DNA from: a virus
Taxonomy: Duplodnaviria; Caudoviricetes
DNA: 63,196 nucleotides
Direction: 5' to 3' (one strand)
Virus record (IMG/VR): IMGVR_UViG_3300046171_000106
Span: 1-63,196 of that record
A program made the translations under genes and the position numbers. Under the pieces are notes generated by a model. The model was not told the DNA's origin, made no database searches, and saw only the letters and a list, made by a program, of their open reading frames with translations. Every line of letters begins with the position of its first letter. Position 1 is the stretch's first letter. Positions 14,916-59,615 of the stretch are shown piece by piece.

Positions 14916-15635
14916 TTATTTAGGGAATTCAAGATTTCCATCTGGTAAAACACTAAACTCCATAACATCATTGAAACTTGGTCGTCCACCCAAATCTTTG
15001 TTTATTTCACCAGTTTGTTTACTTTTAAAACTATTATTAAATGCAATAGATATTCTTTCAAAGTCACTACTATGTGGTTCTACATAATGTATCATTGCAG
15101 AAGGAAATAATAATAAATCACCTTCCTGTGGTATAAATCCAAAATTGTCTGCATCTCTTCTAGACATGTGGGTAAAGTCTGACATGTGATGTGCTTGGCC
15201 ACTCTGGAATTGTACCCACCCATCATTTTTAGTTTCTTCTGGTATTTGTACATAGAATGCACCACTGTACCAACAGCCAGGATGTGTATGGGGATTATTG
15301 TATGAAGTATTGTAATTAATATTTACCCAGTAGTTACCATGTTCTACTTCATAATCATTTTTATATTCACCCATGTAATATGGAAAAACTTCATTGTTGA
15401 AAACACTCTCAACACCATTTAATAAAGATTGGAATATAGGTCTTTCATTTACACCATCATCGGACTGCCAACCAGATGCATTATTAGAACGATTCCTACC
15501 AACTGGATTTTCTTTCCTCATGGTATAAGACTCTTTCTTCATTGCATTAAGTTGTTCACGAGTAATGTATCCCTCATCTACGAGATTTGTTCTAAATACA
15601 TTCCATGAAAACATTGGTATAAACATTAGTTCCAC
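14916..15635 (-). CDS. 2OG-Fe(II) oxygenase (TIGR02466-like)
   Basis: W.N.N....N..HTHPG...SG.FY, P.EGDLLLFPS...H.V, RISIAFN. Confidence 0.88.
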   Translation of the reverse strand: MELMFIPMFSWNVFRTNLVDEGYITREQLNAMKKESYTMRKENPVGRNRSNNASGWQSDDGVNERPIFQSLLNGVESVFNNEVFPYYMGEYKNDYEVEHGNYWVNINYNTSYNNPHTHPGCWYSGAFYVQIPEETKNDGWVQFQSGQAHHMSDFTHMSRRDADNFGFIPQEGDLLLFPSAMIHYVEPHSSDFERISIAFNNSFKSKQTGEINKDLGGRPSFNDVMEFSVLPDGNLEFPK

Positions 15636-16513: not shown

Positions 16514-16731
16514 ATTCGCTCGTGTAAATAATATAATAATAATTTTAAAAAGAAGTCAAAAGTCATGATACCAGCTGCAACCTCAACTGAACCTGTAAGA
16601 AAATAACTAATTAATCCAGTAGTAACTGTTGCAATAATTCTCCATGAAAATGCTTTTGCAATTGACTTACTGTGAGTATCCAAGTTGTCTCCTAATCTCT
16701 GTTGCGGAGATTGATTCTGTCTCTTTATCAA
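16495..16731 (-). CDS. DUF2061-like small membrane protein (true start likely TTG near 16683)
   Basis: S..KA.SWRI.AT and LYY.HERIW motifs. Confidence 0.8.
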   Translation of the reverse strand: MIKRQNQSPQQRLGDNLDTHSKSIAKAFSWRIIATVTTGLISYFLTGSVEVAAGIMTFDFFLKLLLYYLHERIWTNAQ

Positions 16732-17455
16732 AAGACTCCTCTTCTATCTTGTACCCCACATCTCTTCCATATGTTATGTTGACAATGTTCGGTACTTTCT
16801 GTATAATATAGTGTACATTTTCTTCGTATCCTTCTCCTAGTAAAAACATTTTAATGTTTTGTTTTACTGTCTTGAAATCAAATGGATTCTTTGCAGTGTT
16901 TTCCATTGCACGAACCATAATTACTACTTGTCCTGTTTTATCAAAACATCTTTTAAATAGTGCATGATGACCATCATGAAAAGGTTGAAATCTACCTAAC
17001 ATTTGTGTAGTAGGTTTATTTTCATCAAACCTTTTATTGTCTGCAAGTATTTCTCTTGCAATAACTTCTGAATGAAGTTCACCATTCTGGTCTTCTACTA
17101 GATAATCTATTTCATTTTTTAAAGGTCTTTGAAATGCTTTATTAGTATCTGCATATCTACCTTTATCAATTGTATCCATAAAGATTATATAATCTGGATT
17201 TAAAATTTGTCGACCTTGAGTAAATGGACATACGAAATCCATAATTGCATATGGTTTTTCGGATTCTCTACATAGGTCTTTCATCCTATGTACTTGTCTC
17301 ATTCTACCTTCCTCTGAGAAATCCCAATCATTGTGTTGGGCTCGGACTGCATCTGCATTGAAATGGTCTGCATCTAAATGTTCAAGTAGACATTTTGAGA
17401 TGTAAGTTTTTCCACTGCCAGGCAGTCCCATAATTAAAATTGTTTTTGTTTTCAT
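16667..17455 (-). CDS. adenylylsulfate-kinase-like P-loop kinase fused to a cytidylyltransferase-like domain
   Basis: GLPGSGKT, NAD.VR, DFS.EGR, DFVCP in the N-terminal half; GRFQPFHDGH (HxGH) in the C-terminal half. Confidence 0.8.
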   Translation of the reverse strand: MKTKTILIMGLPGSGKTYISKCLLEHLDADHFNADAVRAQHNDWDFSEEGRMRQVHRMKDLCRESEKPYAIMDFVCPFTQGRQILNPDYIIFMDTIDKGRYADTNKAFQRPLKNEIDYLVEDQNGELHSEVIAREILADNKRFDENKPTTQMLGRFQPFHDGHHALFKRCFDKTGQVVIMVRAMENTAKNPFDFKTVKQNIKMFLLGEGYEENVHYIIQKVPNIVNITYGRDVGYKIEEESFDKETESISATEIRRQLGYSQ

Positions 17456-17469
17456 ACTAATACTTATGG

Positions 17470-18387
17470 TTACTCAAAAAGACTACATCGGTCTCCACGA
17501 ACTACCATACTTGTTCGAAAAGGAAATCCATTTTCCTTTGTATATTCAGCTGATGGTGCTGGATGTCTATGTGTTACTGCACCATTCATTACTACCAAAC
17601 GATTAGGTCTATATTGCACTCTACCTACTTCATATTTTTCTTCATCTTCTGGAATACCTGTTATATTATGGTCATGATATTCTCTATTGTAAAAAATTAA
17701 ATCACCACCCCAGTCTTCTTCCCACTTTTCTTGGTCGTAATATAGAAATGATAAATTATCAAGAGCAGATTCATTTAAGTGTGTATCTTCATGCACTGTA
17801 CCATCTTGACCTATTGTTTGTCCATTCCATCCACAATATTGAAAGTATTCCCAATTAAATCTAAAATCTTGTCTTAATTTATGGATAAACCAATCAGTAT
17901 GAACATCCCTATATCCTTCGTGATTTCTTGCTTGAACATTTTCTTTCCAACTAGATGTTAGGAATCTACGATTATTAAAATTGCGTAATGCATAACTAAC
18001 CATCTTACCACTACCATATGCATTTTTTAAACAAGTTCCACTTCCACCTGTTTCTGCAATATTAATGTATACAGCTTCACCCCAATAGAGATGTTGGAAT
18101 TCTCCATCTCTAAAGACTTTATTTTGTCGTCCCCAGTTTATTTGTGCATCTCTCCATTGTCTCCATGAACTCCATATGGCTGGTGATAGATAATTATCAA
18201 TTACCCATACTTGTTGGAAAGGAAGAGATTTTATTGGTTTGGGTCTATCTAGGTATTCAATGTTAAGAGGATGTTCTAACCATGCATAGTTATCCAGATA
18301 TTCATCATAGTTATCTTCTTGTAAACCATTAACTAGTTTAGACTGCTTTTTTGTCTTCACCCAATTTATCCTCACCACCATTAACAT
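17470..18387 (-). CDS. 2OG-Fe(II) oxygenase (prolyl-hydroxylase-like); start uncertain
   Basis: NGQT....G..HED (HxD), W..DWGG.L.F, PNRLV...G...H, R.S. Confidence 0.8.
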   Translation of the reverse strand: MLMVVRINWVKTKKQSKLVNGLQEDNYDEYLDNYAWLEHPLNIEYLDRPKPIKSLPFQQVWVIDNYLSPAIWSSWRQWRDAQINWGRQNKVFRDGEFQHLYWGEAVYINIAETGGSGTCLKNAYGSGKMVSYALRNFNNRRFLTSSWKENVQARNHEGYRDVHTDWFIHKLRQDFRFNWEYFQYCGWNGQTIGQDGTVHEDTHLNESALDNLSFLYYDQEKWEEDWGGDLIFYNREYHDHNITGIPEDEEKYEVGRVQYRPNRLVVMNGAVTHRHPAPSAEYTKENGFPFRTSMVVRGDRCSLFE

Positions 18388-18977
18388 CTAATGTATCGGT
18401 ATTAAATCTTTCATCAATCGGTGAGTCATCCATGAAATGTCCTACTCTAGGAATTTCTGCAAGATTATTTAAATAATGACTAAAGTCTTTGCAATCTTCA
18501 TCTAAAGTTTGTGTTAATTCTTCAACTAGTCTTTCACATAAACCATGTGCAAAGTCACACCACTCCATAATTCTTCTTGCAACTTGTCGTCTAGGGTCTT
18601 GAGAACCTTCTCTACCAGCAATAACCAGAGCAGTTACATCACTCAAATCCACATATACCTCTTGTAAATTCCTCATGAACATAATCGATTTTATCAATTG
18701 TTTCATTTCTTAAATCTTTTATATACTGATTAGCAAGTGTTAAACTTAGAGGTGGTTCTAAAAGGTTTAAATATTCTAGAATTTCAGATTTTTGTTCATC
18801 TGTTATTATAGAAGTTTCTTCACCTAATTCTATTTCAAATAACTCATCTTGTTCTATATAGAATAAAAAATCGTAGTCAAATGAAAATTGTGGTTTGTCT
18901 GCTTTGTCATAATTCCAACGAAGTCCTCTTTCATTGGTAATGTGTAAAACATTGTCGTGGTCATAAATTAATAACAT
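18338..18977 (-). CDS. hypothetical protein (two ORFs joined by a frameshift near 18670); possible partner or chaperone of the repeat adhesin
   Basis: Overlapping ORFs 18639-18977 and 18338-18706; GGAG SD before 18977. Confidence 0.55.
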
Positions 18978-19018: not shown

Positions 19019-20710
19019 TTAAGGCCAAGGTTTATTCAAATCACCATCCCATGTAGATACTGGTCGAGTCGATGGTCTTGTACTTGGTCTAGTAGAAGGT
19101 CTAGTCGATGGTCTATTTGCTGGTCTAGTCAATGTCACTTCATAGTTGGCAGGTCTACTGATAGTCTGTTCAAAGTTAGCAGGTCTATTGTTTTGCAACT
19201 GAGTTGGTCTAGGAATAGTCTGTTCAAATGTTGAAGGTCTACTAATAGTCTGTTCAAAGGTTGCTGGTCTACTAGTTTGATAGTTAGTAGGTCTACTATT
19301 TTGTAACTGAGTTGGTCTAGGTATAGTCACCTCATAGTTAGCAGGTCTATTAATAGTTTGTTCATAGTTGGCAGGTCTGTTAATAGTTTGCTCATAGTTA
19401 GCAGGTCTACTAGTTTGATAGTTAGTAGGTCTAGGTATTGTTTGTTCATAGTTAGCAGGTCTGTTAATAGTTTGCTCATAGTTAGCAGGTCTATTAATGG
19501 TTACCTCATAGTTAGCAGGTCTATTACCTTGAGTTTGGTAATTTTGTGGTCTAGTAGAATGTCCTTGAGTTTGGTAATTCTGTGGTCTAGTTGCATGACC
19601 AGTAGTCTGATAATTTTGTGGTCTAGTTGCATGACCTTGAGTTTGGTAATTCTGTGGTCTAGTTGCATGACCTTGAGACTGGTAAGTAGTAGGTCTACTA
19701 TTCTGTTGTTGATAATTATAAGGTTGCTGAGTATTTATCTGATTTGGAGACCATGGGCCTACTGGTTGGAAAGCTGGTGAAGCTGTACCACCCCAAATCA
19801 TCTGAGCATTAGGAAACTGTTGGTTTGTTGCACCAGCACCAAACTTAGGGTTTGCCGCAGTATGAAAATTCACTTGGTATGTTTGTTGGTTATTAACTGG
19901 TCTAAAACCATGAGCCCCTGTTTGATAATTAGCTGGTCTATGATTCTGAATCTGATAGTTATACTGTTGTGGTCTATGATTCTGTATTTGATAATTATAC
20001 TGAGCAGGTCTATGATTTTGAATCTGATAGTTATACTGTTGTGGTCTATGATTCTGAATCTGATAGTTATACTGTTGTGGTCTATGATTCTGAATCTGAT
20101 AAGTTGTAGGCCTAGGTATTGTTTGTTCGTAAGAAGTAGGTCTTGGTATAGTTACCTCATAACTTGTAGGTCTTGGTATAGTTACCTCATAACTTGATGG
20201 TCTACTATTCTGTACCTGTGTTGGTCTAGGAATAGTTACCTCGTAAGAAGTGGGTCTAGGTATAGTCACTTCGTAAGAAGTAGGTCTAGGAATAGTCTGT
20301 TCAAAGTTAGCAGGTCTAGGAGTTTGGAAATTAGCAGGTCTACTATTCTGTACCTGTGTAGGTCTTGGAATAGTTACTTCATAAGAAGTAGGTCTTGAAA
20401 TAGTTTGTTCAAAGTTAGCAGGTCTTGGAGTTTGAAAAGTAGTAGGTCTAGGTATAGTCACCTCATAAGTTGTAGGTCTACTAATAGTTTGTTCATAGGG
20501 TTGTTGATACCCTTGTTGAAAAGGTTGTTGAAATGGTTGTTGAAATGTCTGTGTAAAAGGTTGTTGCACCTGTATAGTTCCAGTCTGGAATTCCCATCCA
20601 GTTGGAGTCTTTCTTTTTACATCAACTACTTTCTTCCAGCCAGCTGGAGTTTTAACTCTCCATCCATTGGTTTCATTCCACCCAGCTGGGGTTTTTACTT
20701 TTGAACTCAT
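19019..20710 (-). CDS. RP-repeat mirror-symmetric protein, putative fibre-tip adhesin
   Basis: N-terminal 3x KTPxGW; 4/8/10/12-aa repeats, mostly RP-initiated, on either side of a unique 69-aa centre; directly downstream of a fibre ending GDIWITYS. Confidence 0.7.
   Translation of the reverse strand: MSSKVKTPAGWNETNGWRVKTPAGWKKVVDVKRKTPTGWEFQTGTIQVQQPFTQTFQQPFQQPFQQGYQQPYEQTISRPTTYEVTIPRPTTFQTPRPANFEQTISRPTSYEVTIPRPTQVQNSRPANFQTPRPANFEQTIPRPTSYEVTIPRPTSYEVTIPRPTQVQNSRPSSYEVTIPRPTSYEVTIPRPTSYEQTIPRPTTYQIQNHRPQQYNYQIQNHRPQQYNYQIQNHRPAQYNYQIQNHRPQQYNYQIQNHRPANYQTGAHGFRPVNNQQTYQVNFHTAANPKFGAGATNQQFPNAQMIWGGTASPAFQPVGPWSPNQINTQQPYNYQQQNSRPTTYQSQGHATRPQNYQTQGHATRPQNYQTTGHATRPQNYQTQGHSTRPQNYQTQGNRPANYEVTINRPANYEQTINRPANYEQTIPRPTNYQTSRPANYEQTINRPANYEQTINRPANYEVTIPRPTQLQNSRPTNYQTSRPATFEQTISRPSTFEQTIPRPTQLQNNRPANFEQTISRPANYEVTLTRPANRPSTRPSTRPSTRPSTRPVSTWDGDLNKPWP
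19064..20566 (-). repeat. coding tandem repeats of 12/24/30/36 nt
   Basis: Recurring GGTCT anchor (Arg-Pro codons on minus strand); all unit lengths are multiples of 3. Confidence 0.9.
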
Positions 20711-20742: not shown

Positions 20743-23700
20743 CTATGAGTATGTTATCCAGATATCACCTACTGCTCCATCAGTACCTTGTGGGGCAGAA
20801 CTGTGTATAAATGTATTTCTGAATGCCTTTGCACTAGAACCTATTGTTGTATAACTTGTTGTTGCAGCTCCTGTAACTCCTAGTGTTCCACCTACTGTTT
20901 GGTTACCACTAACTGCAAGTGAACTCAATGTTCCAACACTTGTAATTGCAGATTGAGCTGCACCTGTAACTGTAGCTGCACTTCCAGAGACATTGCCTGT
21001 AACATTACCTTCTATGTTTGCAACTAATGTTCCAGTAGTTACTGTTAAACCACCTGTTGAAGAACCTGTTGCAGTAGTTGTTCCCATAACAAACTTATCT
21101 GCACTCTCGTCCCAACCCATAAATGCATTGTTACCTGTTGAACCTCTTTCAAGTATAAGACCTAAGTCATTACTGTTTGAACCAGTATTACCAGAACCAA
21201 GTTCTATTAATGCATCTTCAATTGTTGTGTTTGTTGAACTGTTTGTTACAGATGAACCATTAACTGTTAGGTTACCAGTAATTACAACATTACCACCAGC
21301 AGTTATATCTGTTGCAGCTATATCTGCAAAGGTTACATCTGAGGATGTTGATACATCCTGTCCAATACTAATTGCAGGCTCCCATCCTTCACCAGCACTA
21401 CCACTTACAGTAACACCAGTTCCACCAGTAACATTGTCTACATAGTTTCCAGATGTTCCAGAACCTAATGCAACTGTTCCTACTGCTAGGTCAATTGTAT
21501 TGTCTGCATCTTGATATGTTACAGTAATACCTGTTTCAGTATTTGAAGTGAACATTGCACCTACTGTGTCGGATACTGCTTCTGCAAAGTCTGATACTTG
21601 AGATGAAGGCATACTAATGTCTACACTAGATGCACTTGTTATTCTACCTTTTGAATCTACTGCTACTTGAGCAACACTATTTGCATCACCATAAGTTGCA
21701 GCTGATACACCAGAGTTTGCAAGTGTGATTGGTAATGCAACATTTCCTGTTCCATCAAATGATTGTGATGAATCTGTAGTTGCATCTCCACTTACTGTAA
21801 AGTTTCTTGACGATGCAAGTGCAGTTGCAGTTGCAGCGTTTCCTGTTGTACTTCCAGAAGTACCACTTACATTACCTGTAATATTTGCAACTAATGTACC
21901 TACAGTATATCCTGTTCCAGATGTATTAACTGTTGTTGAAGGTTCTACTTGTGTATCTGTAAATAATCTAAATGTATTATCTGTTGATGCATCGTAGAAT
22001 AAACCACCATATTTTGTTGTAGATGATTCTACATATTTACCATAGAAACCAAAGTCTGTTGCATTTCCAGAGTTTGCATCTGTTAAACCTGTAAAGTTTG
22101 AATCTGTAACTGTTGAACCAGTGTTAGTTGTTGTACCACTAACTACTAAGTTACCACTAACTGTTAAGTCATTTGCAACTGTAACATCAGCAGGTAATCC
22201 ATATGTAATTGTTCCAGAACTTTCTGTAACATCTACTTCACCACCTGTTCCAGCAAATGTTATTGTTCCACCCAATGAAGTTGCAGTTGAACTACCAGAT
22301 GTAGCAACTGTTATACTTGAATTTGCAAGTTTACTATTTGCAATAGAACCTGCTAACATACTATTTTCTACAGCACCAGATGCTATTGTTAATGCAGTTG
22401 CAGTATTACCTAGATTGGTCATTGTTGCTGAACCAGTCACATCTCCTGTGAAACTAAGTACTGGGTCTGCAACATTAAAGTCTAAAGTACCATCTGAGTC
22501 ATCATATGTTACTGAAATACCACTTTCTGTGTTAGTTGTTACCATTCCACCAACAACATCTTCGACTGATTCTTCAAAGTCTGAGATGGTTGATGCAGTT
22601 GTGTTTATTACTAAATCTATTGTTCCATCACCATCTTCATAAGATGCAGTAATACCTGTTTCAGTATTTGAACTGAACATTGCACCTATTGTATCTTGAA
22701 TAACTTCTGATAAGTCAATGTTTGCACTACCATCAAATGATACACCATGAATTGTTCTTGCAGTTGCTAATGCTGTAGCTGTTGATGCATTACCTGTTAA
22801 TGCACCTGTGAATGATGTTGCTGTAACACCACCTGTTACTGTTACACCACTTGAAGTTGTTTCTAATTTTTTAGAATTATCGTTATATAAATCTACTGCA
22901 CCATCTTTAGTTGCAACAACCATATTCTCAGTACCAGCCATCAATTTAACACTGTCACCATTGGTTTTAAGTATTAAATTTCCATCTGATGTATCTTCAA
23001 TATAACTGTTTGATGCGTCATGGTATAATTCCATATTACCACCACCATCACCAAAGATAATCTTTTTTATCGTCTCCTAATGTAATGTCTTTGAAGAACA
23101 TGTTTTTGGTGCCAGAAATTAACTGTGCATAGTCATTAGCGGTTGAACCACCAGCGATTGCAAGACCACCAATTAATTGAGTGATTTGACCAAATGTAGT
23201 CCCAGCATCTTTTAAGAATACAGTTCCACCATCTGCATCAACTGTAACATTTCCACCAGCATCTAGTGTTAAATCACTAGCATCAGATATTGTAGAACCA
23301 TCAATAGTAATATCATCTACTGTTAATGAGGTAAGAGTACCTAAACTTGTTATTTGAGATTGAGCTGCATCTACTGATAATGAATGTGCAATACCTTCAC
23401 CAGAAGTTGCACCTGTAGAAGTAAGACCTGTTCCTGCTGTTACTGTCCCTACATAATTACCTGTTGTATCATTACCTAATGCAACTGAGTCTGATTGAAT
23501 TGTTGAACTGATTGATATGTTTCCACTTCCATCAAAGGATGCAGAACCAACTACATCTCCAGATATTGCAATTGTTCTTGCAGTTGCAAGTGCAGAAGCT
23601 GTGGATGCATTACCTGTTAATGCACCTTCAACATTTGAAATTAAAGTACCTGTTGTATGACCTGTTCCAGATGTATCGACTACAGTTGTAGGTTCTGTTT

Positions 23701-24997
23701 GGTTTCCATGGAATAATCTAAACTTATCTGATTCAGATGCATCCCATAAAAGTCCTGCGTATTTTGTAGTTGAACCATCAACATACTGACCATAGTAACC
23801 AAAGTCTACTGAATTTGCAGCGTTATCTTTTGCAACTTTAACAGTACTATCTGCTACTGAAAGTGATGTAGATGATACTGTAGTTGTACTACCACTTACA
23901 GTTAAGTTTCCACCTACTGTCATATTACCACTTGTAGAAGCTGTACCACTAACTGTTAAATCACCTGCGACTGTTACATCGTCTGGTAATCCAATTGTTA
24001 CACCTGCGTTTTCTGAACCAGAACCAGATACTTCAATTTCATTTGAAGTTCCAGTTACAGTTGCAACATAGTTTCCTGTTGTGTCTGTTCCTAATGCAAC
24101 ACTATTAGCTGCAATAGTTGTACTGATAGATGTATTTCCTAGGTTCGTCATTGTTGCAGAACCAGTTACATCTCCTGTCAATGAAATTGTAGGGTCATTA
24201 ACATTAAAATCTAAAGTACCATCTGAGTCTTCATATGTGACACTAATACCACTTTCGGTATTAGATGATACCATTCCACCAACAACATCTTGTACTCTTT
24301 CTGTTGTATGGTATTGGTTTGTTCCTTCTGGTACGAATGATGTACTAGATACTGTTCCTACATCTACTCTTGAACCCATACCACTATGATTTGAACAGAA
24401 GTAATATAATGGGTTTGTTGCATCCATAGCTAATGCAACTTCTGTATATGAACCTGCTGAGCCTGGAGTTCCAACTTTGTTGTAAATGGTATATTCACCA
24501 GAACCTATTTCTGAACCATTTGCAGCTGTACCAATTCTTAAAGGATGAGAACTATTACTATTATCTGATTGGTCGAACCTGTATACTACGCCAGGAGAGA
24601 GCTTAGCTACTTGTTGTGTTCCACCATCTAATTGATACTTATTACCACTTTCATTAACTACTGTAACTGTAATCTTATGATAAAATGGTGCAGTTGTGTT
24701 GTTTAGTTGTTGTTCTACTGCAAGGTCGATAGTTCCATCACCATCTTCATAACCTACAGTTATATTTGTTTCAGTGTTGGAACTAAACATAGCTCCCACT
24801 GTGTCTTGAATAAATTCTGCACCTACTGTTGCACTAAAGGTTGCATTACTGTCATTATAACTGAATGATATACCTGTATGTGAACCAGCTGCAAACAGAG
24901 TTGAAATCTGGTCTTGTATTGCCTCAACTGCACCTGTGGAGTCTAGTTCTCCAGATGCATTTAAAAGGTCTGCAAGATATCTTGCTTTTGTTGGCAT
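20743..24997 (-). CDS. long tail fibre protein (frameshift near 23060 splits it into two ORFs)
   Basis: T/S/G-rich; repeated DTVGAMFSSNTETGI and GDVTGSAT modules, GNASTATALATART motif, C-terminal GDIW. Confidence 0.8.
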
Positions 24998-25028
24998 TTT
25001 AAAGTTCTCCTAATTAAATCCTTTATAG

Positions 25029-26339
25029 TTATTTATGTAAATCATCTATTTCGATGAAGTTTTCTCCTGTGATTTGTTCTAATTTACGAATCATCTTTTC
25101 CATATTAACTTTAAACCTTTTACCAGTTTTCACATTTTCTGAATAGTAAATCCATTCACCTTGATTGTTGTGAGGAGAGATTTGGGTAACATTACCTGCT
25201 TCATCTCTTGCAAACAACTCTGCACTACCACTCACATCTTTTGAATATAAAGATGCACGATTAGTGACTCCAGATGGGTCGGATGCAAGTACTTCTAAAT
25301 GCACTGGCCCATCTTGTACATCTACATAAGTAGATGGTTTAAGTACGACTGAATCAGTCCCACTCGAAATTATTTCCTTTCCATTAGTATCTAAATTACC
25401 ACCAAGGAAAGGTACTGTATCTAAGAACAAGTTTACTTCTGGTGTAACAAACCCATAGTCGATAATATCTACAACATAATTTGGGTCTGTAAGTGCTTCT
25501 TCAAAATTAATTTGAGTACCACTACCAGAACTCCATTGTCCTTTTTTAACTAAGACACCATTCACAAATACTTCTGTATACTTGGGAATGACACTTAATG
25601 TTCTATTATTTGCATCTGTTCCACTTATTTGTGAAGTAGAAGCTGCAGTTATATCATATTGAAATCTTGTAAATGGTGCAGAACCAGTATAACTTTTTAT
25701 TATAACTGTGTCATTTACTTGTAGTCCAGCATTGAAAGTTATTGTCGATGCACTTGTTTCAACATAATCTGCACCAGACCTGTTGTCCATAAGAACACCA
25801 TTTAAGAATACTAAAACTTTGCCTGGCGTATATGATAGAGTAACACTATTTTCATCTGAACCAGTTAATACTGTTTGTCCTGCTGTTGCAGTGAATTCGT
25901 AGTTTGATATACCTGTAATTAATCCAGAAGTGACACCAGCTGTCCATGCAACTATTTCTAAGTAGTCAGAAGATTTTGCACCATCATCTAATACAATTGT
26001 TGAACCATTAGTTGCAGTATAATCATCTGGGTCTAAGAATACTCCATTAAGGAATACTGCAACCTGTCCAGAAGTATACGACAAGGAATCACCATTTGCA
26101 TCGGTGCCTGAAAAAGATGTTTGGTTTGCACTACAGTTATAAAGGTAATGTTTCATTGCAGTGATATCAGTAGAAGTATCTGCACCTACCTCAACGATAG
26201 ATTCAGTTCCACCCACACTTTTCTTAATGTATGCTTTACCATCATAGGTGTTCAATGCCAATTCACCTAACGCTAAGTCAGATGTACTTGGAATTGCACC
26301 AGCAGTAGCAGACCTTTTTAATTGGACTGTCTGTGTCAT
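25029..26339 (-). CDS. tail fibre / virion structural protein
   Basis: LKRS....P...L..GELALN..DG N-terminus; repeated T.GQT.F..VFLNGV modules. Confidence 0.7.
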   Translation of the reverse strand: MTQTVQLKRSATAGAIPSTSDLALGELALNTYDGKAYIKKSVGGTESIVEVGADTSTDITAMKHYLYNCSANQTSFSGTDANGDSLSYTSGQVAVFLNGVFLDPDDYTATNGSTIVLDDGAKSSDYLEIVAWTAGVTSGLITGISNYEFTATAGQTVLTGSDENSVTLSYTPGKVLVFLNGVLMDNRSGADYVETSASTITFNAGLQVNDTVIIKSYTGSAPFTRFQYDITAASTSQISGTDANNRTLSVIPKYTEVFVNGVLVKKGQWSSGSGTQINFEEALTDPNYVVDIIDYGFVTPEVNLFLDTVPFLGGNLDTNGKEIISSGTDSVVLKPSTYVDVQDGPVHLEVLASDPSGVTNRASLYSKDVSGSAELFARDEAGNVTQISPHNNQGEWIYYSENVKTGKRFKVNMEKMIRKLEQITGENFIEIDDLHK

Positions 26340-55149: not shown

Positions 55150-55734
55150 ATGGCAGGTAAACTATTTGACAGATTAGAAAGAGAAGCGTTTCGTGGTGGT
55201 ATCCAAGCAAGGACTAAAGAGTCTATGAGATGGTTCAAACAAAGAGTATCCACAATTAAAGGTGTAAGTAGACAAGAACTACTGAGGGATGCAACTCAAC
55301 GAAAAAGACAAATCTTTGGTGATATGTACATGTATATGTACGACCCAAAACACAAAAAAACCTTACCTTATTATGATAGGTTTCCCTTGTGTATACCAGT
55401 AGAACCTGCTAAAGGTGGATTTTATGGATTGAATCTGCATTATTTACCTCACTCATTACGAGCTCAGTTTTTAGATGCATTATATGATACAACAAATAAT
55501 GATAAATATGATGAGACAACAAGATTTAGATTGACATATGATTTACTTAAACAAATAAGAGGTAAACCATTTTATAAAGCATGTTACAAACATTATCTAT
55601 CTTCACATGTAAGAAGTACATTTGCAAAGGTAGATAGTGCAGATTGGGAAATTGCAATATTTTTACCAACAGAGTCATTCAAGAAATCAAGTATGGATGC
55701 AGTTTGGAAAGAAAGTAGGAAAAAAATGGCATGA
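55150..55734 (+). CDS. gp2: DNA end protector gp2
   Basis: YDPK.K..LPYYD.FPL, GLNLHYL, K.YL..HV.S, W..A..LP...F. Confidence 0.93.
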   Translation: MAGKLFDRLEREAFRGGIQARTKESMRWFKQRVSTIKGVSRQELLRDATQRKRQIFGDMYMYMYDPKHKKTLPYYDRFPLCIPVEPAKGGFYGLNLHYLPHSLRAQFLDALYDTTNNDKYDETTRFRLTYDLLKQIRGKPFYKACYKHYLSSHVRSTFAKVDSADWEIAIFLPTESFKKSSMDAVWKESRKKMA

Positions 55735-56342
55735 AATTAGAAAGATTTAAGGCACAAATAGATAATTTACAACGAGGTAATAGATACAATGTTGCAATGT
55801 TTGGTACTGGTGCAAAGAATGGTGGTCTTAGTATCAGAGGTATTAAATGTGAATCTGCAACATTGCCTGGCAAAGGTTTCTTTACAGTAGAAGAATCAGA
55901 ATATGGCCCTAAGAGAGCAATACCACATAAACCACAATATGATGCATTTGATTGTTCATTCTTACTAGATAATAGTTTTGAAGATAGAGAATTAATTGAA
56001 TTGTGGATGTCTACTATAAATGGAAATGCAGAAGGTAATTTCCATAGTAGATTTCATGATGATTACACTGGTATTATCATGGTTGAGGCATTAGACAAAC
56101 AAGATAATGTTAACTATAGGTGTGTCATGACCGATGCATTTCCTGTACAACTAGGTGTAGTTAATCTTGGAAATGAAAATGGAGATATAACAAAATTTAA
56201 TGCACAGTTTCGATATAGATACTGGCATGGAGAGTTTACTAATTCTAAACCATCTAACCTGTTTATGGGTTTCATGGATAAACATTTAAGTAAATTCTCA
56301 AATAAAATTAAAGGTAAAATTGAAGACAAAATCTTCGGATAA
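55731..56342 (+). CDS. gp54: baseplate tail-tube initiator gp54-like
   Basis: Tube-like motifs R.NRY, CE...LPG, AFP, F.YR.W. Confidence 0.7.
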   Translation: MKLERFKAQIDNLQRGNRYNVAMFGTGAKNGGLSIRGIKCESATLPGKGFFTVEESEYGPKRAIPHKPQYDAFDCSFLLDNSFEDRELIELWMSTINGNAEGNFHSRFHDDYTGIIMVEALDKQDNVNYRCVMTDAFPVQLGVVNLGNENGDITKFNAQFRYRYWHGEFTNSKPSNLFMGFMDKHLSKFSNKIKGKIEDKIFG

Positions 56343-56358
56343 TCAATAGGAGTATATT

Positions 56359-57086
56359 ATGGCATTACCTAAATTAAATACTGTAGAGTATTTTTGTAAA
56401 CTACCTGTATCTGGTATTGAAGCAAAGTACCGACCTTTAATGTCAAGGAACAAAAAATATTGTTACAGACATTAGAAGATGGAACACCGAAAGCAATATC
56501 AAATGGTATGATGATGTTAATAAGGTCATGTTCAGAACTACAAGATGATAATTGGACAGTTGAGAAATTATCTAATACAGATTTAGAATGGTTGTTTATA
56601 CAAATCAGAATGAAATCTGTAGGTGAATCAACTAAAGTATTATTACCATGTGTTAATCAACAAAATGGATGTGAAGAGAAAACACCAGTCGAAATTGAAT
56701 TCGATAGGATGAAAATAATTGGTGAAATGAATGAACCTAAAGTGCAGATTACTGACACTGTAGGTGTAGTTTTAAGAATACCAAGTTATCTAGACATCCA
56801 AGATTTATATGAAAGTGGTGAAGATATCGATACAGATAACATCTTTAAAGTGTTGAATAAATGCATTGTACAAATATTTGATGCAGATGAAGTTCAAAAT
56901 AGAAGTGACTTTACTGAAAAAGAATTAGATGATTTTATGAACGAATTGTCAACTGAACAATTCAATAATGTGATGGAATGGTTTAATGAACTACCAAAAC
57001 TGGTAAAGAATGTGGAGTTTGAATGTAGTAAATGTAGTACTCATAATGAGGTAAAACTAGAAGGAATTCAGAATTTTTTCGTCTAG
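56359..57086 (+). CDS. gp26: baseplate hub assembly protein gp26 (frameshift near 56437)
   Basis: MALPKL..YRPF.VKE.K.LL, D.E.LF..IR.KSVGE, CxxC, LEG...FF. Confidence 0.88.
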
Positions 57087-57268
57087 CCCTTTCTCATGAA
57101 ACACTTGCAAATTACATTCAGACAAACTTTGGTTTAATTCAACACCACAATTGGTCATTGACCGAACTGGATGATATGCATCCTTGGGAAAGGGAGATAT
57201 ATGTCTCTCTACTAGTGTCTCATCTTGAAGATGAAGAATTGAAGATGAAACAACAACAGAACAGATAA
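57074..57268 (+). CDS. gp51: baseplate hub assembly catalyst gp51 (no own start codon; -1 frame relative to gp26); not in ORF track
   Basis: LALSHETLANYIQTNFGLIQHHNWSLTELDDMHPWEREIYVSLL; the M.PWEREIY motif is diagnostic. Confidence 0.85.
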   Translation, partial: FFRLALSHETLANYIQTNFGLIQHHNWSLTELDDMHPWEREIYVSLLVSHLEDEELKMKQQQNR

Positions 57269-57289
57269 CAGATAGAATAGGAGAGTATA

Positions 57290-57673
57290 ATGTCTGAGAA
57301 TAGAGAAAGATTCAGTGGTGACATGAGTCGTAATGAAGTTGAAATAGACTTAAGTAAGTTTATGGAAATGGTTACCGAAAACAATGACCTCAAACAACAA
57401 ATATTTGAGTTAACACATGATGATAAGACTAATCCATGGCAAAAATGGATATTCGCTGCAAGAGCAGTAGATAGTTGGAGAATATGGCCTCGTGCATTCT
57501 TAAGTGTATACATATTCTTAATATACTATGTAGTAATGTGGTTCATAGGATTAGAAGCACCAACAATGGAACAATCTGGTCTTATCAGTATTCTAGTTGG
57601 AGCAGGAGCTGCTTGGTTTGGACTATATGTCAACTCAGCTGCAAAAGAACACTCCACTAACAACGACAAATAG
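57290..57673 (+). CDS. two-TM membrane protein (holin-like?)
   Basis: GGAG SD; D.WRI.PR followed by two hydrophobic helices. Confidence 0.6.
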   Translation: MSENRERFSGDMSRNEVEIDLSKFMEMVTENNDLKQQIFELTHDDKTNPWQKWIFAARAVDSWRIWPRAFLSVYIFLIYYVVMWFIGLEAPTMEQSGLISILVGAGAAWFGLYVNSAAKEHSTNNDK

Positions 57674-57685
57674 ATAAATAGTATT

Positions 57686-59615
57686 ATGGCAGACGATATA
57701 AGCAACGAACAAGCAAGTGTATGGTTATCTCAGATTAATTTAGGTATTAGACAACTTAATGAAAATCTAAAATCCAAAGACTCTTTGAATAGTGTTGGAA
57801 ATCTTAAGAAAGCACTCAAAGAATCTAATTTATCAGATGAAGATACACAAAAAGTTATAAGTAAACAAGGTCTTATGGAACTTGGTTATGACTCAGAAGA
57901 TGCTGATATTCGTGTTGCCGCAAATGCTGAACTCAAACGACTTAGAGAGAAGCAAGAACAACTTAATCAACTCCAAGAACAGTTTGGTGGATTGTCTGCA
58001 AAAGACTCAACTACTCAAGAACAGATAGAATTTGACATCGATAGGATGTTAGAGATACAAAAGTTTGGTAGAGAATTAACTAAATTAGACAAAACTTTTC
58101 TAGGTGGTCTTGATAGACTACAAGGTAGTTTACAGGAACAATCTCAAAAGGGTGAAATAGGTTTAAAGGGTGCAATAGGTGGACTTAAGGGTGACTTAAG
58201 GAATGACTTTGATAAAGTAACTGCATTCTTAGGGGCCAGCTGCAACTGCATTGAGTAACTTACCATTCCTTGGTACTATTGTAAACTTTGGTACTAAACT
58301 AGTAAAACAAGGTGCATTACAACTCTTAAATATTATAAGAGGGTGGAAAGAAGGTAAGAAACAACACAAAGAAAGAGTTAAAATCGAAAATAAAAAAGTC
58401 AAACTATCCAAGAAAGAACAAGAAAGGATAAATCGTCAAAGGGCAAAAGAAGGTAAAGTTCCAGTAAAAAGGGATGGTACACCAGACAAAAGGTTTAAAG
58501 AGAAAAAGACTGATGATGATGGTAATGGATTGTTTGGTGCAGCTGCTGGTGCCATGGCATTAGGTGCTACTGCATCTGTATTTAATCCTATTACTATGAC
58601 TGCATTCGTAAGTGCATCTGCATTAGCAGCTGTTGGTCTTGGATTACTTGGTACTGGTATAGCAGCGTTTATGTCAATGGTTGGATTAGGTGCTGGAGTT
58701 TTAATTTACAAAATAATGCGTGGGTTTGCAAGAGGATTTGCAGAATTTGATGAGACTGGTGCTACCGATGCCCTTCAACGATTAGAAAAACTTGATTTAA
58801 TAAAGATTGCTGGTGGTCTAGCTGCACTTGCTGGAACATCTATGTTGAATTCAATTGCTGGATTACTTGCACTACTGCCTGGCGATGAAGCCCCATATAC
58901 AAAACTAGGTGAAGATGCAGCTGGGTTTGCTAATGCAGTCAATGGTAGTGGATTCTTAAGTATTGACACTGATGCTTTTGCAGCACAAACCTCTGCATTG
59001 TTTGGCCCTTCTGTTAAAAACTCATTTGCTGGTGTATTAGCCTTCTTTAAAGGTGATGCTACACCATTAACTGATTTAGGTGCAGATGCAGCTGGATTTG
59101 CAGAGAAAGTTAAACCATTCGAAGACATGGATGTAGATACCTTTGTTACTAACATTGAGAAAATCAAAGGTGTAATGTCGAATTTTGAACTACCAGAAAA
59201 TAAAGATGGTTTACTTAAGAGTATGTTTGGTGAAGGTGGTGTTGACCAACTAAAAGACCTTGCTGGTATTAAATTTGCAGATGCAGAACTTGGTGGTAAG
59301 TTAGAAAAACTAGGTGATGGTGTAGATATGGTATCTGCTGGTTTAGATAATTTGACTATTGATAAGGCAAAAGCTCTTGGTAGATTAGGTCATGAGATTG
59401 GTAAAAACTTTGATAACTTCAATCTAAACTTTGGTACTATACCACAAACTGCTGGTGCTGGTGCTGATATGACTGTTGCAGAAGGAGAAATGCAACCAAA
59501 TGTAAATGTGGTAAATACTGTATCAAGTCCAACTACAAATACTAATGTAAGAAGAACATACGCTGCAACTGGTGTTCCATTAATGCTTAATAGAGCTTAT
59601 CTGTCTCTACCTTAA
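57686..59615 (+). CDS. tape-measure / gp29-like protein (frameshift near 58235)
   Basis: Helical N-terminus, A/G-rich hydrophobic middle, N/T-rich C-terminus; follows gp26-gp51. Confidence 0.6.

Follow-up and report, generated by a model that had tools for sequence, protein, structure and literature searches.

The gene at 19019..20710 (minus strand) of the window, the whole stretch of 63,196 nucleotides that was analysed, encodes a 563-aa protein whose Arg-Pro units are arranged in two arms around a central region, the unit lengths and complementary unit types of one arm recurring in reverse order in the other. The protein probably serves as a structural fibre in a T4-like myovirus, marine and uncultured, in which the chain would double back at a variable tip in a continuous register (i+j=599). 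The evidence consists of the mirror order of the units, the complementarity of their types, compensatory changes between the arms, anti-diagonal covariation and a conservation gradient that is symmetric from both ends.

Organization of the gene and of its product

The gene and the parts of its product, from the N- to the C-terminus, are as follows.

19019..20710, minus strand: whole gene, 563 aa plus stop; open reading frame intact in related loci
20570..20710, minus strand: N-terminal domain, aa 1-47, with three KTPxGW hairpin-like repeats
20507..20566, minus strand: five N-side 4-residue units, aa 49-68 (QQPF, TQTF, QQPF, QQPF, QQGY)
19904..20506, minus strand: N arm, aa 69-269, comprising a 9-mer (pair 0), 18 paired RP units of 8, 10 or 12 aa and unit 19
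19697..19903, minus strand: centre, aa 270-338, 69 aa, with conserved NPKFG and GPW motifs
19127..19696, minus strand: C arm, aa 339-528, 19 RP units with lengths and complementary types in reverse order
19067..19126, minus strand: five C-side 4-residue units, aa 529-548 (RPAN, then RPST four times)
19022..19066, minus strand: C-terminal tail, aa 549-563, 15 aa (RPVSTWDGDLNKPWP), nearly invariant

A GAGGA motif is located 12 nt 5' of the ATG. Cutting the protein at each 'RP' yields 45 unit boundaries, and both this division and the 69-aa centre, proposed in an earlier note on this DNA, were reproduced. The composition is biased, the 563 residues including 80 Q, 75 T, 74 P and 51 N. The N-terminal 77 aa close with the five 4-mers and the 9-mer, and five C-side 4-mers are found in all the full-length homologues listed. 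In the full-length AlphaFold2 model the region of aa 1-47 displays six short strands (pLDDT 52-60); this domain may be the virion-attachment end. At the C-terminal end of the centre, 11-12 residues (QQPYNYQQQNS) resemble a degenerate 12-mer opposite N-arm unit 19 (RPANYQTGAHGF), and pairing of the two would therefore leave an unpaired loop of about 58 aa.

Mirror order of the unit lengths

The lengths of the N-arm units are 10,8,10,10,8,8,10,10,10,8,10,10,10,10,12,12,12,12,(12) and those of the C-arm units 12,12,12,12,10,10,10,10,8,10,10,10,8,8,10,10,8,10,(10). In the mirror register all 18 unit pairs of the window protein are of equal length, while shifted mirror registers match at 7-12 of 16-19 units and direct (parallel) registers at 4-9 of 16-19. 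Eighteen matches were never reached in 200,000 shuffles of all the C-arm units, and in 316 of 200,000 when a conservative shuffle was applied (8/10 units only, best of 7 shifts). The length palindrome described in the earlier note, for which a shuffle test had been proposed, is thus borne out. A search for inverted DNA repeats within the gene returned none, and seven families of direct repeats were found instead, some of them common to both arms (for example 19202-19378 versus 20249-20425, 79% identity). The symmetry therefore exists at the protein level only, in agreement with the previous statement that the DNA arms are not reverse complements of each other.

A total of 43 unique homologues was collected from marine viral and metagenome contigs, and 33 of them are exact mirrors, displaying 20 different length patterns. 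The main set contributed 32 exact mirrors out of 42 in 19 patterns; the twentieth pattern was added by L054 (19/19 units), which had been dropped by the start-motif filter and was analysed separately. When the 19 patterns are joined by a minimum spanning tree, at least 53 one-arm unit edits are required, and every one of them is mirrored in the other arm. Matched length changes in both arms, as predicted, are therefore what the homologues exhibit. Their unit lengths differ only by steps of two residues (8, 10, 12).

The remaining 10 of the 43 homologues depart from exact mirror order; in most of them a block of units is missing from one arm, and several are located on short contigs. One (L003) carries an extra 10-mer in the N arm, in two (L030, L066) an 11-mer faces a 10-mer beside the tip, blocks of the N arm are missing from five (L038, L039, L044, L045, L073) and C-arm units from two (L068, L070). 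They may represent either assembly collapse or real variants, and all ten were left out of the type, mutual-information, flip and edit counts. Six incomplete loci (L034, L071, L072, L074, L075, L076) were left out of the wider homologue set, and L017-L026, L028 and L031-L033, being repeats of contigs from the first scan, were not re-extracted.

Complementary module types

Mirror partners are complementary rather than alike. In the window protein the four 8-mer pairs all oppose [FY]QT[PS] to Q[VL]QN, nine of the ten E-type pairs oppose EV to EQ (the exception, pair 3, is EQ/EQ) and the four 12-mer pairs all oppose QQYNYQIQNH to QNYQTQGH-type units; each of these pairings had been pointed out beforehand and holds. 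In the window protein only, the direct duplication between the arms alone accounts for two of the four complementary 8-mer pairs. The rule was examined further in the 588 unit pairs of 32 exact-mirror homologues, pair 0 being excluded. The E-type pairs comprise 270 EQ-EV, 24 EQ-EQ and no EV-EV; TQVQNS 8-mers face NYQTS 8-mers (8Q-8Y) in 97 cases, with no like-with-like pair and two untyped; and the 12-mers form 88 12N-12G and two 12G-12G pairs. Three EV-EV pairs appear if pair 0 and L003 are counted: pair 0 of L013, pair 0 of L016 and one misregistered pair in L003.

A further pairing test covered 14 sequences, without L005 (5'-truncated) and L008 (identical to L007). In their mirror register 243 of 270 pairs are complementary, as compared to 1-11 of 17-20 when the register is displaced by one or two units, and for each protein shuffles within length classes match the observed complementarity in 0-290 of 10,000 trials. 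The two types of a pair can be borne by either arm (83/44, 30/27, 33/8 and 9/9 in these 14 sequences). Pairwise comparisons between homologues of equal pattern revealed 26 V/Q-to-Q/V flips, versus 23 changes confined to one arm and 129 positions without change. One such flip, at pair 7, distinguishes the window protein from L002, whose gene is identical to the window gene at 1617 of 1692 nt, and it lies within short multi-substitution patches in both arms.

Residue covariation and structure models

Mutual information was computed over 177 unique E-type 10-mer pairs. The strongest signal couples position 7 with position 7 (excess 0.55 bit, z 60), followed by (3,10) and (10,3) with 0.33 and 0.28 bit (z 14 each) and by (4,10)/(10,4) with z 6-7; a weak (5,5) signal lies off the anti-diagonal (0.06 bit, z 9.6), and these z-scores, obtained by shuffling, overstate independence because the homologues share kinship. 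Covariation of (3,3) and (10,10), looked for in the same 177 pairs, gave z below 1. The covarying positions in paired 10-mers define an antiparallel register.

The strand pairs of the full-length AlphaFold2 model, 145-151/448-454, 250-256/343-349 and 261-267/332-338, all lie on i+j=599. A 217-aa mini-hairpin modeled in the same manner contains seven strand pairs, all on i+j=221, equivalent to 599 in full numbering and to i+j=14 inside a 10-mer pair, and this register coincides with that of the (7,7) covariation. Strand partners were deduced from where DSSP places the strands rather than from coordinates. The anti-diagonal arrangement anticipated for a monomer model is accordingly present in both models at low confidence (mean pLDDT 32 and 50, pTM 0.16 and 0.18 for the full-length protein and the mini-hairpin, respectively), and the models are not independent of the covariation because alignments of the same homologues were used. 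A short non-strand stretch, R-P-x, is observed at every unit boundary in the models. By extrapolation from the 10-mer covariation and from the strands of the two models, the N-side 4-mers would be placed opposite the C-arm RPxx 4-mers in the register i+j=599.

Searches for relatives

A tblastn search against 50,697 phage records with the whole protein, the N-terminal 77 aa and the 69-aa centre, the low-complexity filter being on, returned no match, from a cultured phage or any other. A profile search against all PDB chains produced a single match (E 3.1, a photosystem II subunit), and no fibre family was assigned to the window protein in Pfam, PHROG or NCBIfam. A Foldseek search with the mini-hairpin yielded nothing at E <= 0.001; the highest-ranked entries, among them phi29 tail, lysenin and further pore-forming proteins, reflect long hairpins only and were discarded. 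Viral hypothetical clusters were the only entries found in the Protein Atlas. HMMER returned 68 matches at E <= 0.001 among 1.84 billion representatives. Of the 19 examined, chosen among the long ones, 18 were rejected as unrelated low-complexity tandem repeats, and P0057 shares the N-terminal KTPxGW region only. Short high-identity matches among the other 49 are presumably fragments of this family. The sole word-indexed match, P0001, covers 9% of the query and was set aside as a likely chimera. The literature searched contains neither a description of this family nor of mirror-ordered repeats in phage fibres, and the motifs YEVTIP, YEQTIP, YNYQIQNH and KTPAGW are absent from it.

Genomic context and conservation gradient

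The gene is the last in a run of tail-fibre-like genes of a T4-like myovirus, and its immediate neighbours are as follows.

20743..26339, minus strand: three fibre-like genes upstream (763, 649 and 436 aa), with PHROG tail-fibre hits and conserved synteny
17470..18977, minus strand: three genes downstream (112, 122 and 305 aa), always found after the fibre gene

Baseplate wedge genes are located upstream and neck genes downstream, the latter including a head-tail adaptor (phrog_211) and a head closure protein (phrog_460). The synteny is identical wherever the flanks reach (15 loci, first scan). Judged by the gp6-like wedge protein, the closest cultured relatives are phages of Methylophilales and Pelagibacter (39-42% identity). 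The 305-aa downstream protein bears a weak likeness to 2OG-Fe(II)-oxygenases, and one may speculate that the products of the three downstream genes act in assembly or modification or are partners of the fibre. The rate at which these genes diverge is similar to that of the fibre gene; co-evolution was considered and not retained, as equal divergence could be a plain evolutionary-rate effect, and no functional link is claimed.

The mean pairwise column identity from N to C is 0.93, 0.84, 0.72, 0.66, 0.44, 0.49 (centre), 0.46, 0.61, 0.72, 0.88 and 0.96. The N-terminal domain (aa 1-47, 0.93) and the C-terminal tail (0.96) are the most conserved parts, the N-side 4-mers stand at 0.84 and the centre at 0.49, and the fall toward the centre is symmetric from both ends. 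The length of the centre ranges from 29 to 72 aa among the homologues. This gradient suggests that the variable centre is the distal tip and, together with the gene neighbourhood, that 'receptor-binding tip' and 'adhesin', the terms of the earlier note, may be appropriate; the fibre and receptor-binding function as such would follow from the neighbourhood.

The same neighbourhood allows for a fold-back fibre that is genuine yet serves as a neck whisker or collar fibre, or as another accessory fibre involved in environment sensing or assembly. T4 fibritin, a parallel trimeric coiled coil with a C-terminal foldon, plays such a neck whisker/collar role, and its gene, wac, is located between genes 12 and 13, a position comparable to that of the present gene, which has the fibre/baseplate block on one side and the neck genes on the other. 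The full-length model of the present protein shows no helices. The profile searches did not recognise any receptor-binding domain either. Against this possibility, which we regard as unlikely, the centre and inner arms evolve fastest, as expected of a host-contact tip, and no sequence likeness to fibritin or to another family was found.

Comparison with known systems

The closest precedent for the proposed fibre is the receptor-binding needle of the T4 long tail fibre protein gp37 (domain D11, PDB 2XGF), in which the chain doubles back at the tip (PMC6957217, PMC12609058). The claim of the earlier note that no phage adhesin of such architecture had been described therefore overshoots. As in gp37, where the receptor-contacting part is the turn (PMC6957217, PMC12609058), up and down segments of equal length would run antiparallel here. 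Mirror order (33/43), anti-diagonal covariation and model strands on i+j=599 all point to the same doubling back. The arms of the gp37 needle measure 50 and 50 aa and the fold-back is confined to the last ~130 of 1026 residues, whereas it would span the whole 563-aa protein here with about 240 aa per arm. In addition, gp37 lacks repeat modules and has no counterpart to the modular two-type units of 8, 10 and 12 aa. In both systems the next gene after that of the fibre is a small one (gp38 in T4, the 112-aa ORF here). No likeness to gp37 or to a gp12-like collar domain was detected by sequence or profile (PDB, Pfam, PHROG, NCBIfam).

Seven HxH motifs are present in residues 883-998 of T4 gp37, where they coordinate iron along the needle axis. 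The window protein contains none; among 42 homologues 32 contain none, seven contain one and three contain two. Iron sites of the gp37 kind at the His-bearing 12-mers were therefore rejected as a general feature, 14 of the 42 homologues being devoid of His and other clades carrying Y, T, P or N at the His positions. In the register i+j=599 the His residues would lie on the polar face, six residues apart.

Other architectures share single aspects. Interruptions of the coiled coils of SMC and Rad50 are mirrored between the arms. These proteins resemble the present one in that a long chain folds back and arm lengths must match, their N and C arms running antiparallel around a central domain so that the termini meet (e.g. 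PMC4345284). Their arms are nevertheless alpha-helical heptads in cellular ATPases, while a Pro occurs here every 8-12 residues, strands alone are present in the arms of the models and no homology exists. By analogy, the arms behave like the stems of RNA hairpins, with order-reversed complements, compensatory V/Q to Q/V changes, indels matched on both sides and a Q-Q intermediate tolerated in the manner of G-U; unlike in RNA, the units are peptide modules of 8-12 residues and the physical basis would be side-chain packing in a beta ladder. The triple beta-helix of T4 gp5C and gp12 and the triple beta-spiral of adenovirus also build long, thin fibres from short repeats with Pro/Gly turns. Such parallel trimeric shafts have in common with this protein the short sequence repeats of a phage or viral fibre, but their chains are parallel and in register and need no mirror between halves; the direct register scores reported above and the lack of (3,3)/(10,10) covariation are at variance with that arrangement. 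Collagen-like Gly-X-Y repeats are not found either (Gly 19/563 overall and 7/382 in the arms, with units of 8, 10 and 12 aa).

Proposed architecture and its alternatives

The proposed architecture can be summarized as follows. The N half of ~240 residues (~aa 36-275) would run antiparallel to the C half of ~240 (~aa 324-563), so that the C-terminal tail would adjoin aa 36-50. Each Arg-Pro would act as a joint, the joints of both arms being opposite (R1 versus x3', P2 versus P2') in the register i+j=599. If the joints of the arms face each other, the strand lengths between joints must be equal, hence the length palindrome, and length steps of two residues (8, 10, 12) preserve the in/out alternation of a beta-strand. 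On the Tyr/Ile face a large residue would be opposed to a small or different one across the strands: V7 to Q7 and Y5 to I9 in the 10-mers; Y7 to G9, Y5 to A11 and I9 to T7 in the 12-mers; V5 to T7 and N7 to Y5 in the 8-mers. With such large-opposite-small packing every module type therefore needs its complement opposite; Q-Q would be a tolerated intermediate and V-V would not be tolerated. The two conserved termini would be together at one end, probably that of virion attachment, and the variable centre would be the distal tip, in contact with the host or the environment. New lengths and types would arise by gain or loss of units and by short conversion patches between direct DNA repeats, selection retaining matched states only.

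In its strongest form, this scheme amounts to a discrete pairing code for beta-strand modules of three lengths, each in two complementary types, in which an antiparallel ladder admits a module only where the complement stands across from it, the length and stiffness of a ~70-nm fibre evolve by matched edits, Q-Q serves as a wobble pair and intragenic conversion compensates; we hold the case for and against this code to be evenly balanced. Of the antiparallel two-stranded filament originally proposed, the fold-back is upheld by the mirrored edits, the type swaps between arms, the covariation and the models, while the two strands may be part of a larger assembly. By analogy with gp37, a trimeric six-stranded needle may be formed and is at least as likely as a two-stranded filament. 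At 3.3 A per residue the fibre would measure 65-80 nm if extended.

The arms could also pair between chains, the N arm of one lying antiparallel on the C arm of another to form a two-fold symmetric rod whose middle is occupied by the centres and whose two ends carry the termini. All the covariation evidence fits this arrangement equally well, as self-complementarity permits a duplex as well as a hairpin. Such a rod would however lack polarity, while conservation that is high at the termini and gives way to a centre variable in sequence and length is in keeping with a fibre that has a base and a tip. Moreover, the centre lacks an internal mirror pattern by which it could pair with itself, the monomer models of AlphaFold2 adopt the hairpin form, although with low confidence, and gp37, the known phage precedent, is intramolecular. 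Pairing between chains is thus quite improbable, and a hairpin within one chain is the reading we infer.

A disordered low-complexity spacer or mucin-like linker devoid of a fixed fold would be in keeping with the biased composition, the low AlphaFold2 confidence and a distant search dominated by spurious low-complexity matches. It is hardly credible, as disorder would impose neither mirror order, complementary types nor anti-diagonal covariation, and the two-residue length steps fit strand geometry. Finally, an origin of the mirror in chance, in misassembly or in an event at the DNA level, inverted duplication for instance, which would leave it devoid of structural meaning, may be evoked by the 10,10,8,8,10,10 stretch, itself palindromic and directly duplicated between the arms (79% DNA identity), and by the collapse of repeats known from short-read assemblies, but is refuted in practice by the homologue patterns, mirrored edits and type counts, since 20 exact-mirror patterns from separate contigs are beyond assembly error, inverted DNA repeats are absent, an inverted duplication would not encode the same units, and the type complementarity goes further than the length order that 200,000 shuffles failed to reproduce.

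Implications

The fold-back topology is known from T4 gp37, and the novelty would reside in its span over a whole protein and in the modular two-type code. If the fold-back reading of the fibre is true, the principle of the gp37 tip is extended from a 50-residue stem to an entire fibre protein, showing how a fold-back fibre could vary its length while keeping its register. The 20 patterns, the at least 53 mirrored edits and the many V/Q flips constitute an unusually clean natural experiment in protein covariation that fixes topology and residue register without a solved structure; it would be a rare case of a tertiary topology readable from repeat-level covariation alone. Should the couplings 7-7, 3-10 and 4-10 reflect direct contacts, they provide natural, readable rules for long two-arm beta structures. 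Protein design could draw on the code as a candidate set of rules for building long antiparallel beta ladders from short modules. For the virus itself, the protein is a candidate fast-evolving host-contact fibre in an abundant, uncultured lineage of marine myoviruses.

Organization of the probable fibre protein

The fibre gene carries a GAGGA motif 12 nt 5' of its ATG. Repeat units were defined by cutting the encoded protein ahead of each Arg-Pro, which yields the following layout.

Layout of the fibre gene product
19019-20710, minus strand: fibre ORF of 563 aa
Head: 77 aa, N-terminal
N arm: 19 units of 10,8,10,10,8,8,10,10,10,8,10,10,10,10,12,12,12,12,12 aa
Centre: 69 aa
C arm: 19 units of 12,12,12,12,10,10,10,10,8,10,10,10,8,8,10,10,8,10,10 aa
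Five 4-mers: after the C arm, before the tail
Tail: 15 aa, C-terminal

When the arms are matched in mirror register, unit length is equal in 18/18 pairs, compared with 7-12 of 16-19 in shifted mirror registers and 4-9 of 16-19 in parallel ones. This score was attained by none of 200,000 full unit shuffles and by 316 of 200,000 in a conservative shuffle restricted to the 8/10 units. The length palindrome proposed in the earlier note is thereby borne out, as are its pairings of complementary unit types within this protein (8-mers, 4/4 pairs; EV with EQ, the E-containing 10-mers with V or Q at position 7, 9/10; 12-mers, 4/4). The gene contains direct DNA repeats, some common to both arms, and no inverted ones; the mirror symmetry therefore exists only at the protein level, in agreement with the earlier statement that the arms are not reverse complements. 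Three plus-strand ORFs lying within the gene (19358-19780, 19820-20197 and 20405-20704; 99-140 aa, with LIVSRS-like repeats) are not genes but shadows cast by the repeat array.

Mirror order among homologues

Scans of viral and metagenome contigs provided 75 homologous loci, from which 42 unique sequences running from start motif to stop were retained; locus L054 was added separately. Exact mirrors are formed by 32 of the 42, in 19 distinct length patterns, and L054 (19/19 units) displays a 20th. The patterns are highly diverse: the 12-mers are located beside the centre in the window protein and in mid-arm in homologues L007 and L013, and are absent from L049. A minimum spanning tree of the 19 patterns comprises 53 unit edits in one arm, each matched in the other. 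Indels thus occur in mirror pairs, the outcome for which the earlier note had proposed to test, and the matched changes in both arms support the fold-back interpretation. Misassembly, chance or a DNA-level process as the origin of the mirror is ruled out by the diversity of exact-mirror patterns together with the matched edits.

Ten homologues are not exact mirrors. Compared with the 98% identical L037, L003 has one additional 10-mer, which lies in a stretch of identical units; an 11-mer faces a 10-mer beside the tip in L030 and L066; blocks of N-arm units are missing from L038, L039, L044, L045 and L073, and C-arm units from L068 and L070. Several of these sequences, found on contigs only 1-2.4 kb long, may represent collapsed repeats or assemblies; equally, the ten may be real variants, perhaps defective, or natural unmatched intermediates. 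L038, L039 and L045 are closest to L037, each lacking a different part of the N arm.

Complementary unit types and residue register

Unit types were counted in the 32 exact mirrors, which together contain 588 unit pairs. The E-type pairs comprise 270 EQ-EV, 24 EQ-EQ and no EV-EV; among 8-mers, TQ[VL]QNS-type units lie opposite [YF]QT-type units 97 times and like never meets like; among 12-mers, YNYQIQN-type units oppose YQTQG-type units 88 times, with 2 exceptions. Complementary types make up 243 of the 270 pairs in a set of 14 sequences, as against 1-11 of 17-20 when the register is slid by one or two units. When partners were shuffled 10,000 times within each length class, 0-290 of the shuffles for each protein matched the observed count. 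Each type is found in either arm (83/44, 30/27, 33/8 and 9/9 in these sequences). Comparison of homologues sharing one pattern revealed 26 flips from V/Q to Q/V and 23 one-arm changes; nearly all of the latter lead to or from Q-Q, a pair that accordingly acts as an intermediate which is tolerated. The genes of the window protein and L002 are 95.6% identical, and the flip between them consists of short multi-substitution patches in both arms, which suggests conversion from other repeat units.

Covariation was computed as excess mutual information between N-unit and C-unit positions over 177 unique E-type 10-mer pairs. The z-scores ignore kinship, and the useful control is the contrast among cells of one matrix: (7,7) reaches 0.55 bit (z 60), (3,10) and (10,3) 0.33 and 0.28 bit (z 14) and (4,10)/(10,4) z 6-7, with no covariation at (3,3) or (10,10); the off-diagonal (5,5) is weak (0.06 bit, z 9.6) and reflects a Y/F choice. 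The signal follows the anti-diagonal i+j = 13-14, as expected of antiparallel and not of parallel strands. AlphaFold2 produced three strand pairs at full length (14 sequences, pLDDT 32) and seven for a 217-aa mini-hairpin (aa 190-406; 32 sequences, pLDDT 50). In both models each strand has an equal-length partner at i+j=599 in full-length numbering (pairing taken from DSSP positions, not coordinates), and strands are interrupted by three non-strand residues at every R-P-x. This register equals i+j=14 inside a 10-mer pair, that is, the (7,7) register. Since models and covariation draw on the same input, and the models are of low confidence, the models indicate consistency only.

Very probably, the two arms pair antiparallel. 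In register i+j=599 the R-P-x joints of both arms would lie opposite one another; facing joints would require equal inter-joint segments, with lengths changing only by two residues. The Tyr/Ile face would then bring together Y5-I9, V7-Q7 and I9-Y5 in 10-mers, Y5-A11, Y7-G9, I9-T7 and N11-Y5 in 12-mers, and V5-T7 and N7-Y5 in 8-mers. On this model, the pairing code seems to be one of complementary size.

Conservation is high at both termini and low in the middle: mean column identity declines from 0.93 (aa 1-47) through 0.84, 0.72 and 0.66 to 0.44 on the N side, is 0.49 in the centre, and rises through 0.46, 0.61, 0.72 and 0.88 to 0.96 (aa 549-563) on the C side. The centre varies from 29 to 72 aa among homologues. 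Folding back would set a conserved base, presumably the attachment end, at one extremity and a variable tip at the other.

Genomic context

The 63,196-base window, a viral record with an estimated completeness of 35%, encodes baseplate wedge proteins of T4 type and a large terminase. The closest relatives of its gp6-like wedge protein belong to phages of Methylophilales (42%), Pelagibacter (39-40%) and Prochlorococcus (34-35%). The window comes from a marine, uncultured T4-like myovirus. Plus-strand ORFs form a block at 55150-59615 with reversed GC and AT skew, the rest of the window being almost entirely minus-strand.

The fibre gene is the last in a run of four fibre-like genes (436, 649, 763 and 563 aa). 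Next come a pair of small ORFs, a gene with weak likeness to 2OG-oxygenases, a kinase/cytidylyltransferase gene and, beyond further genes, those of the neck. The 15 related loci from the first scan all have this order as far as their flanks extend. The upstream fibre proteins (20743-23034 and 23048-24997, minus strand) match several PHROG tail-fibre families and contain a repeated SNTETGIT.SY.D.DGTIDL-type motif, which occurs three times in the 763-aa protein.

The small ORFs (112 and 122 aa, 18338-18977, minus strand, overlapping by 68 nt) are always preceded by the fibre gene, have no family matches and diverge as fast as it does (39-98% identity across loci); by position, their products are candidate chaperones or tip partners. 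The kinase and cytidylyltransferase-like protein (16667-17455, minus strand; phrog_10255, 1.4e-50) remains 90-100% identical across loci where the fibre gene falls to 56%, which marks a sharp rate boundary. Two 2OG-Fe(II)-oxygenase-like genes lie shortly downstream on the minus strand: 17470-18387, with weak, below-cut-off matches to Pfam PF13640 (E 2.9e-4) and an NCBIfam FlmC-type family (E 1e-5, far below), and 14916-15635, clearly matching phrog_81 (4e-34). Given the 45 Arg-Pro motifs of the fibre, its hydroxylation by these adjoining proteins can be speculated upon.

Relation to known fibres

No family describing the window protein was found in Pfam, PHROG or NCBIfam, no resembling chain in a profile search of the PDB, no matching record among 50,697 phage genomes, and none of its motifs in the literature searched. 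Two protein database matches share its N-terminus. P0057 (437 aa, distant) has the KTPxGW region in common, followed by other short repeats (PYIANA and RSPFTY types) and a C-terminal Hint/intein-like domain (PF14890, E 7.8e-8, just below cut-off); the N-terminal module could be an attachment domain that different proteins reuse. P0001 (374 aa) is 94% identical over its first ~70 aa and carries peptidase-M16-type Pfam labels over the remainder; its probable origin is a chimera at the level of contig or gene call.

Taken as a whole, the protein is likely to be a structural fibre whose chain doubles back, the arms antiparallel in one register, with the conserved termini as base and the variable centre as tip. 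Its function as a fibre is putative, and the chances that it binds a receptor appear about even. A fold-back topology is shared with T4 gp37, in which, according to PMC6957217, residues 882-931 and 960-1009 make up the stem of domain D11 and residues 932-959 the tip. The gp37 record contains seven HxH motifs, 50/50-aa arms and no repeat modules. The window protein differs from gp37 in the defining iron motifs, in sequence and in scale, and is therefore not filed in that family; we regard it as a new variation on the fold-back fibre principle.
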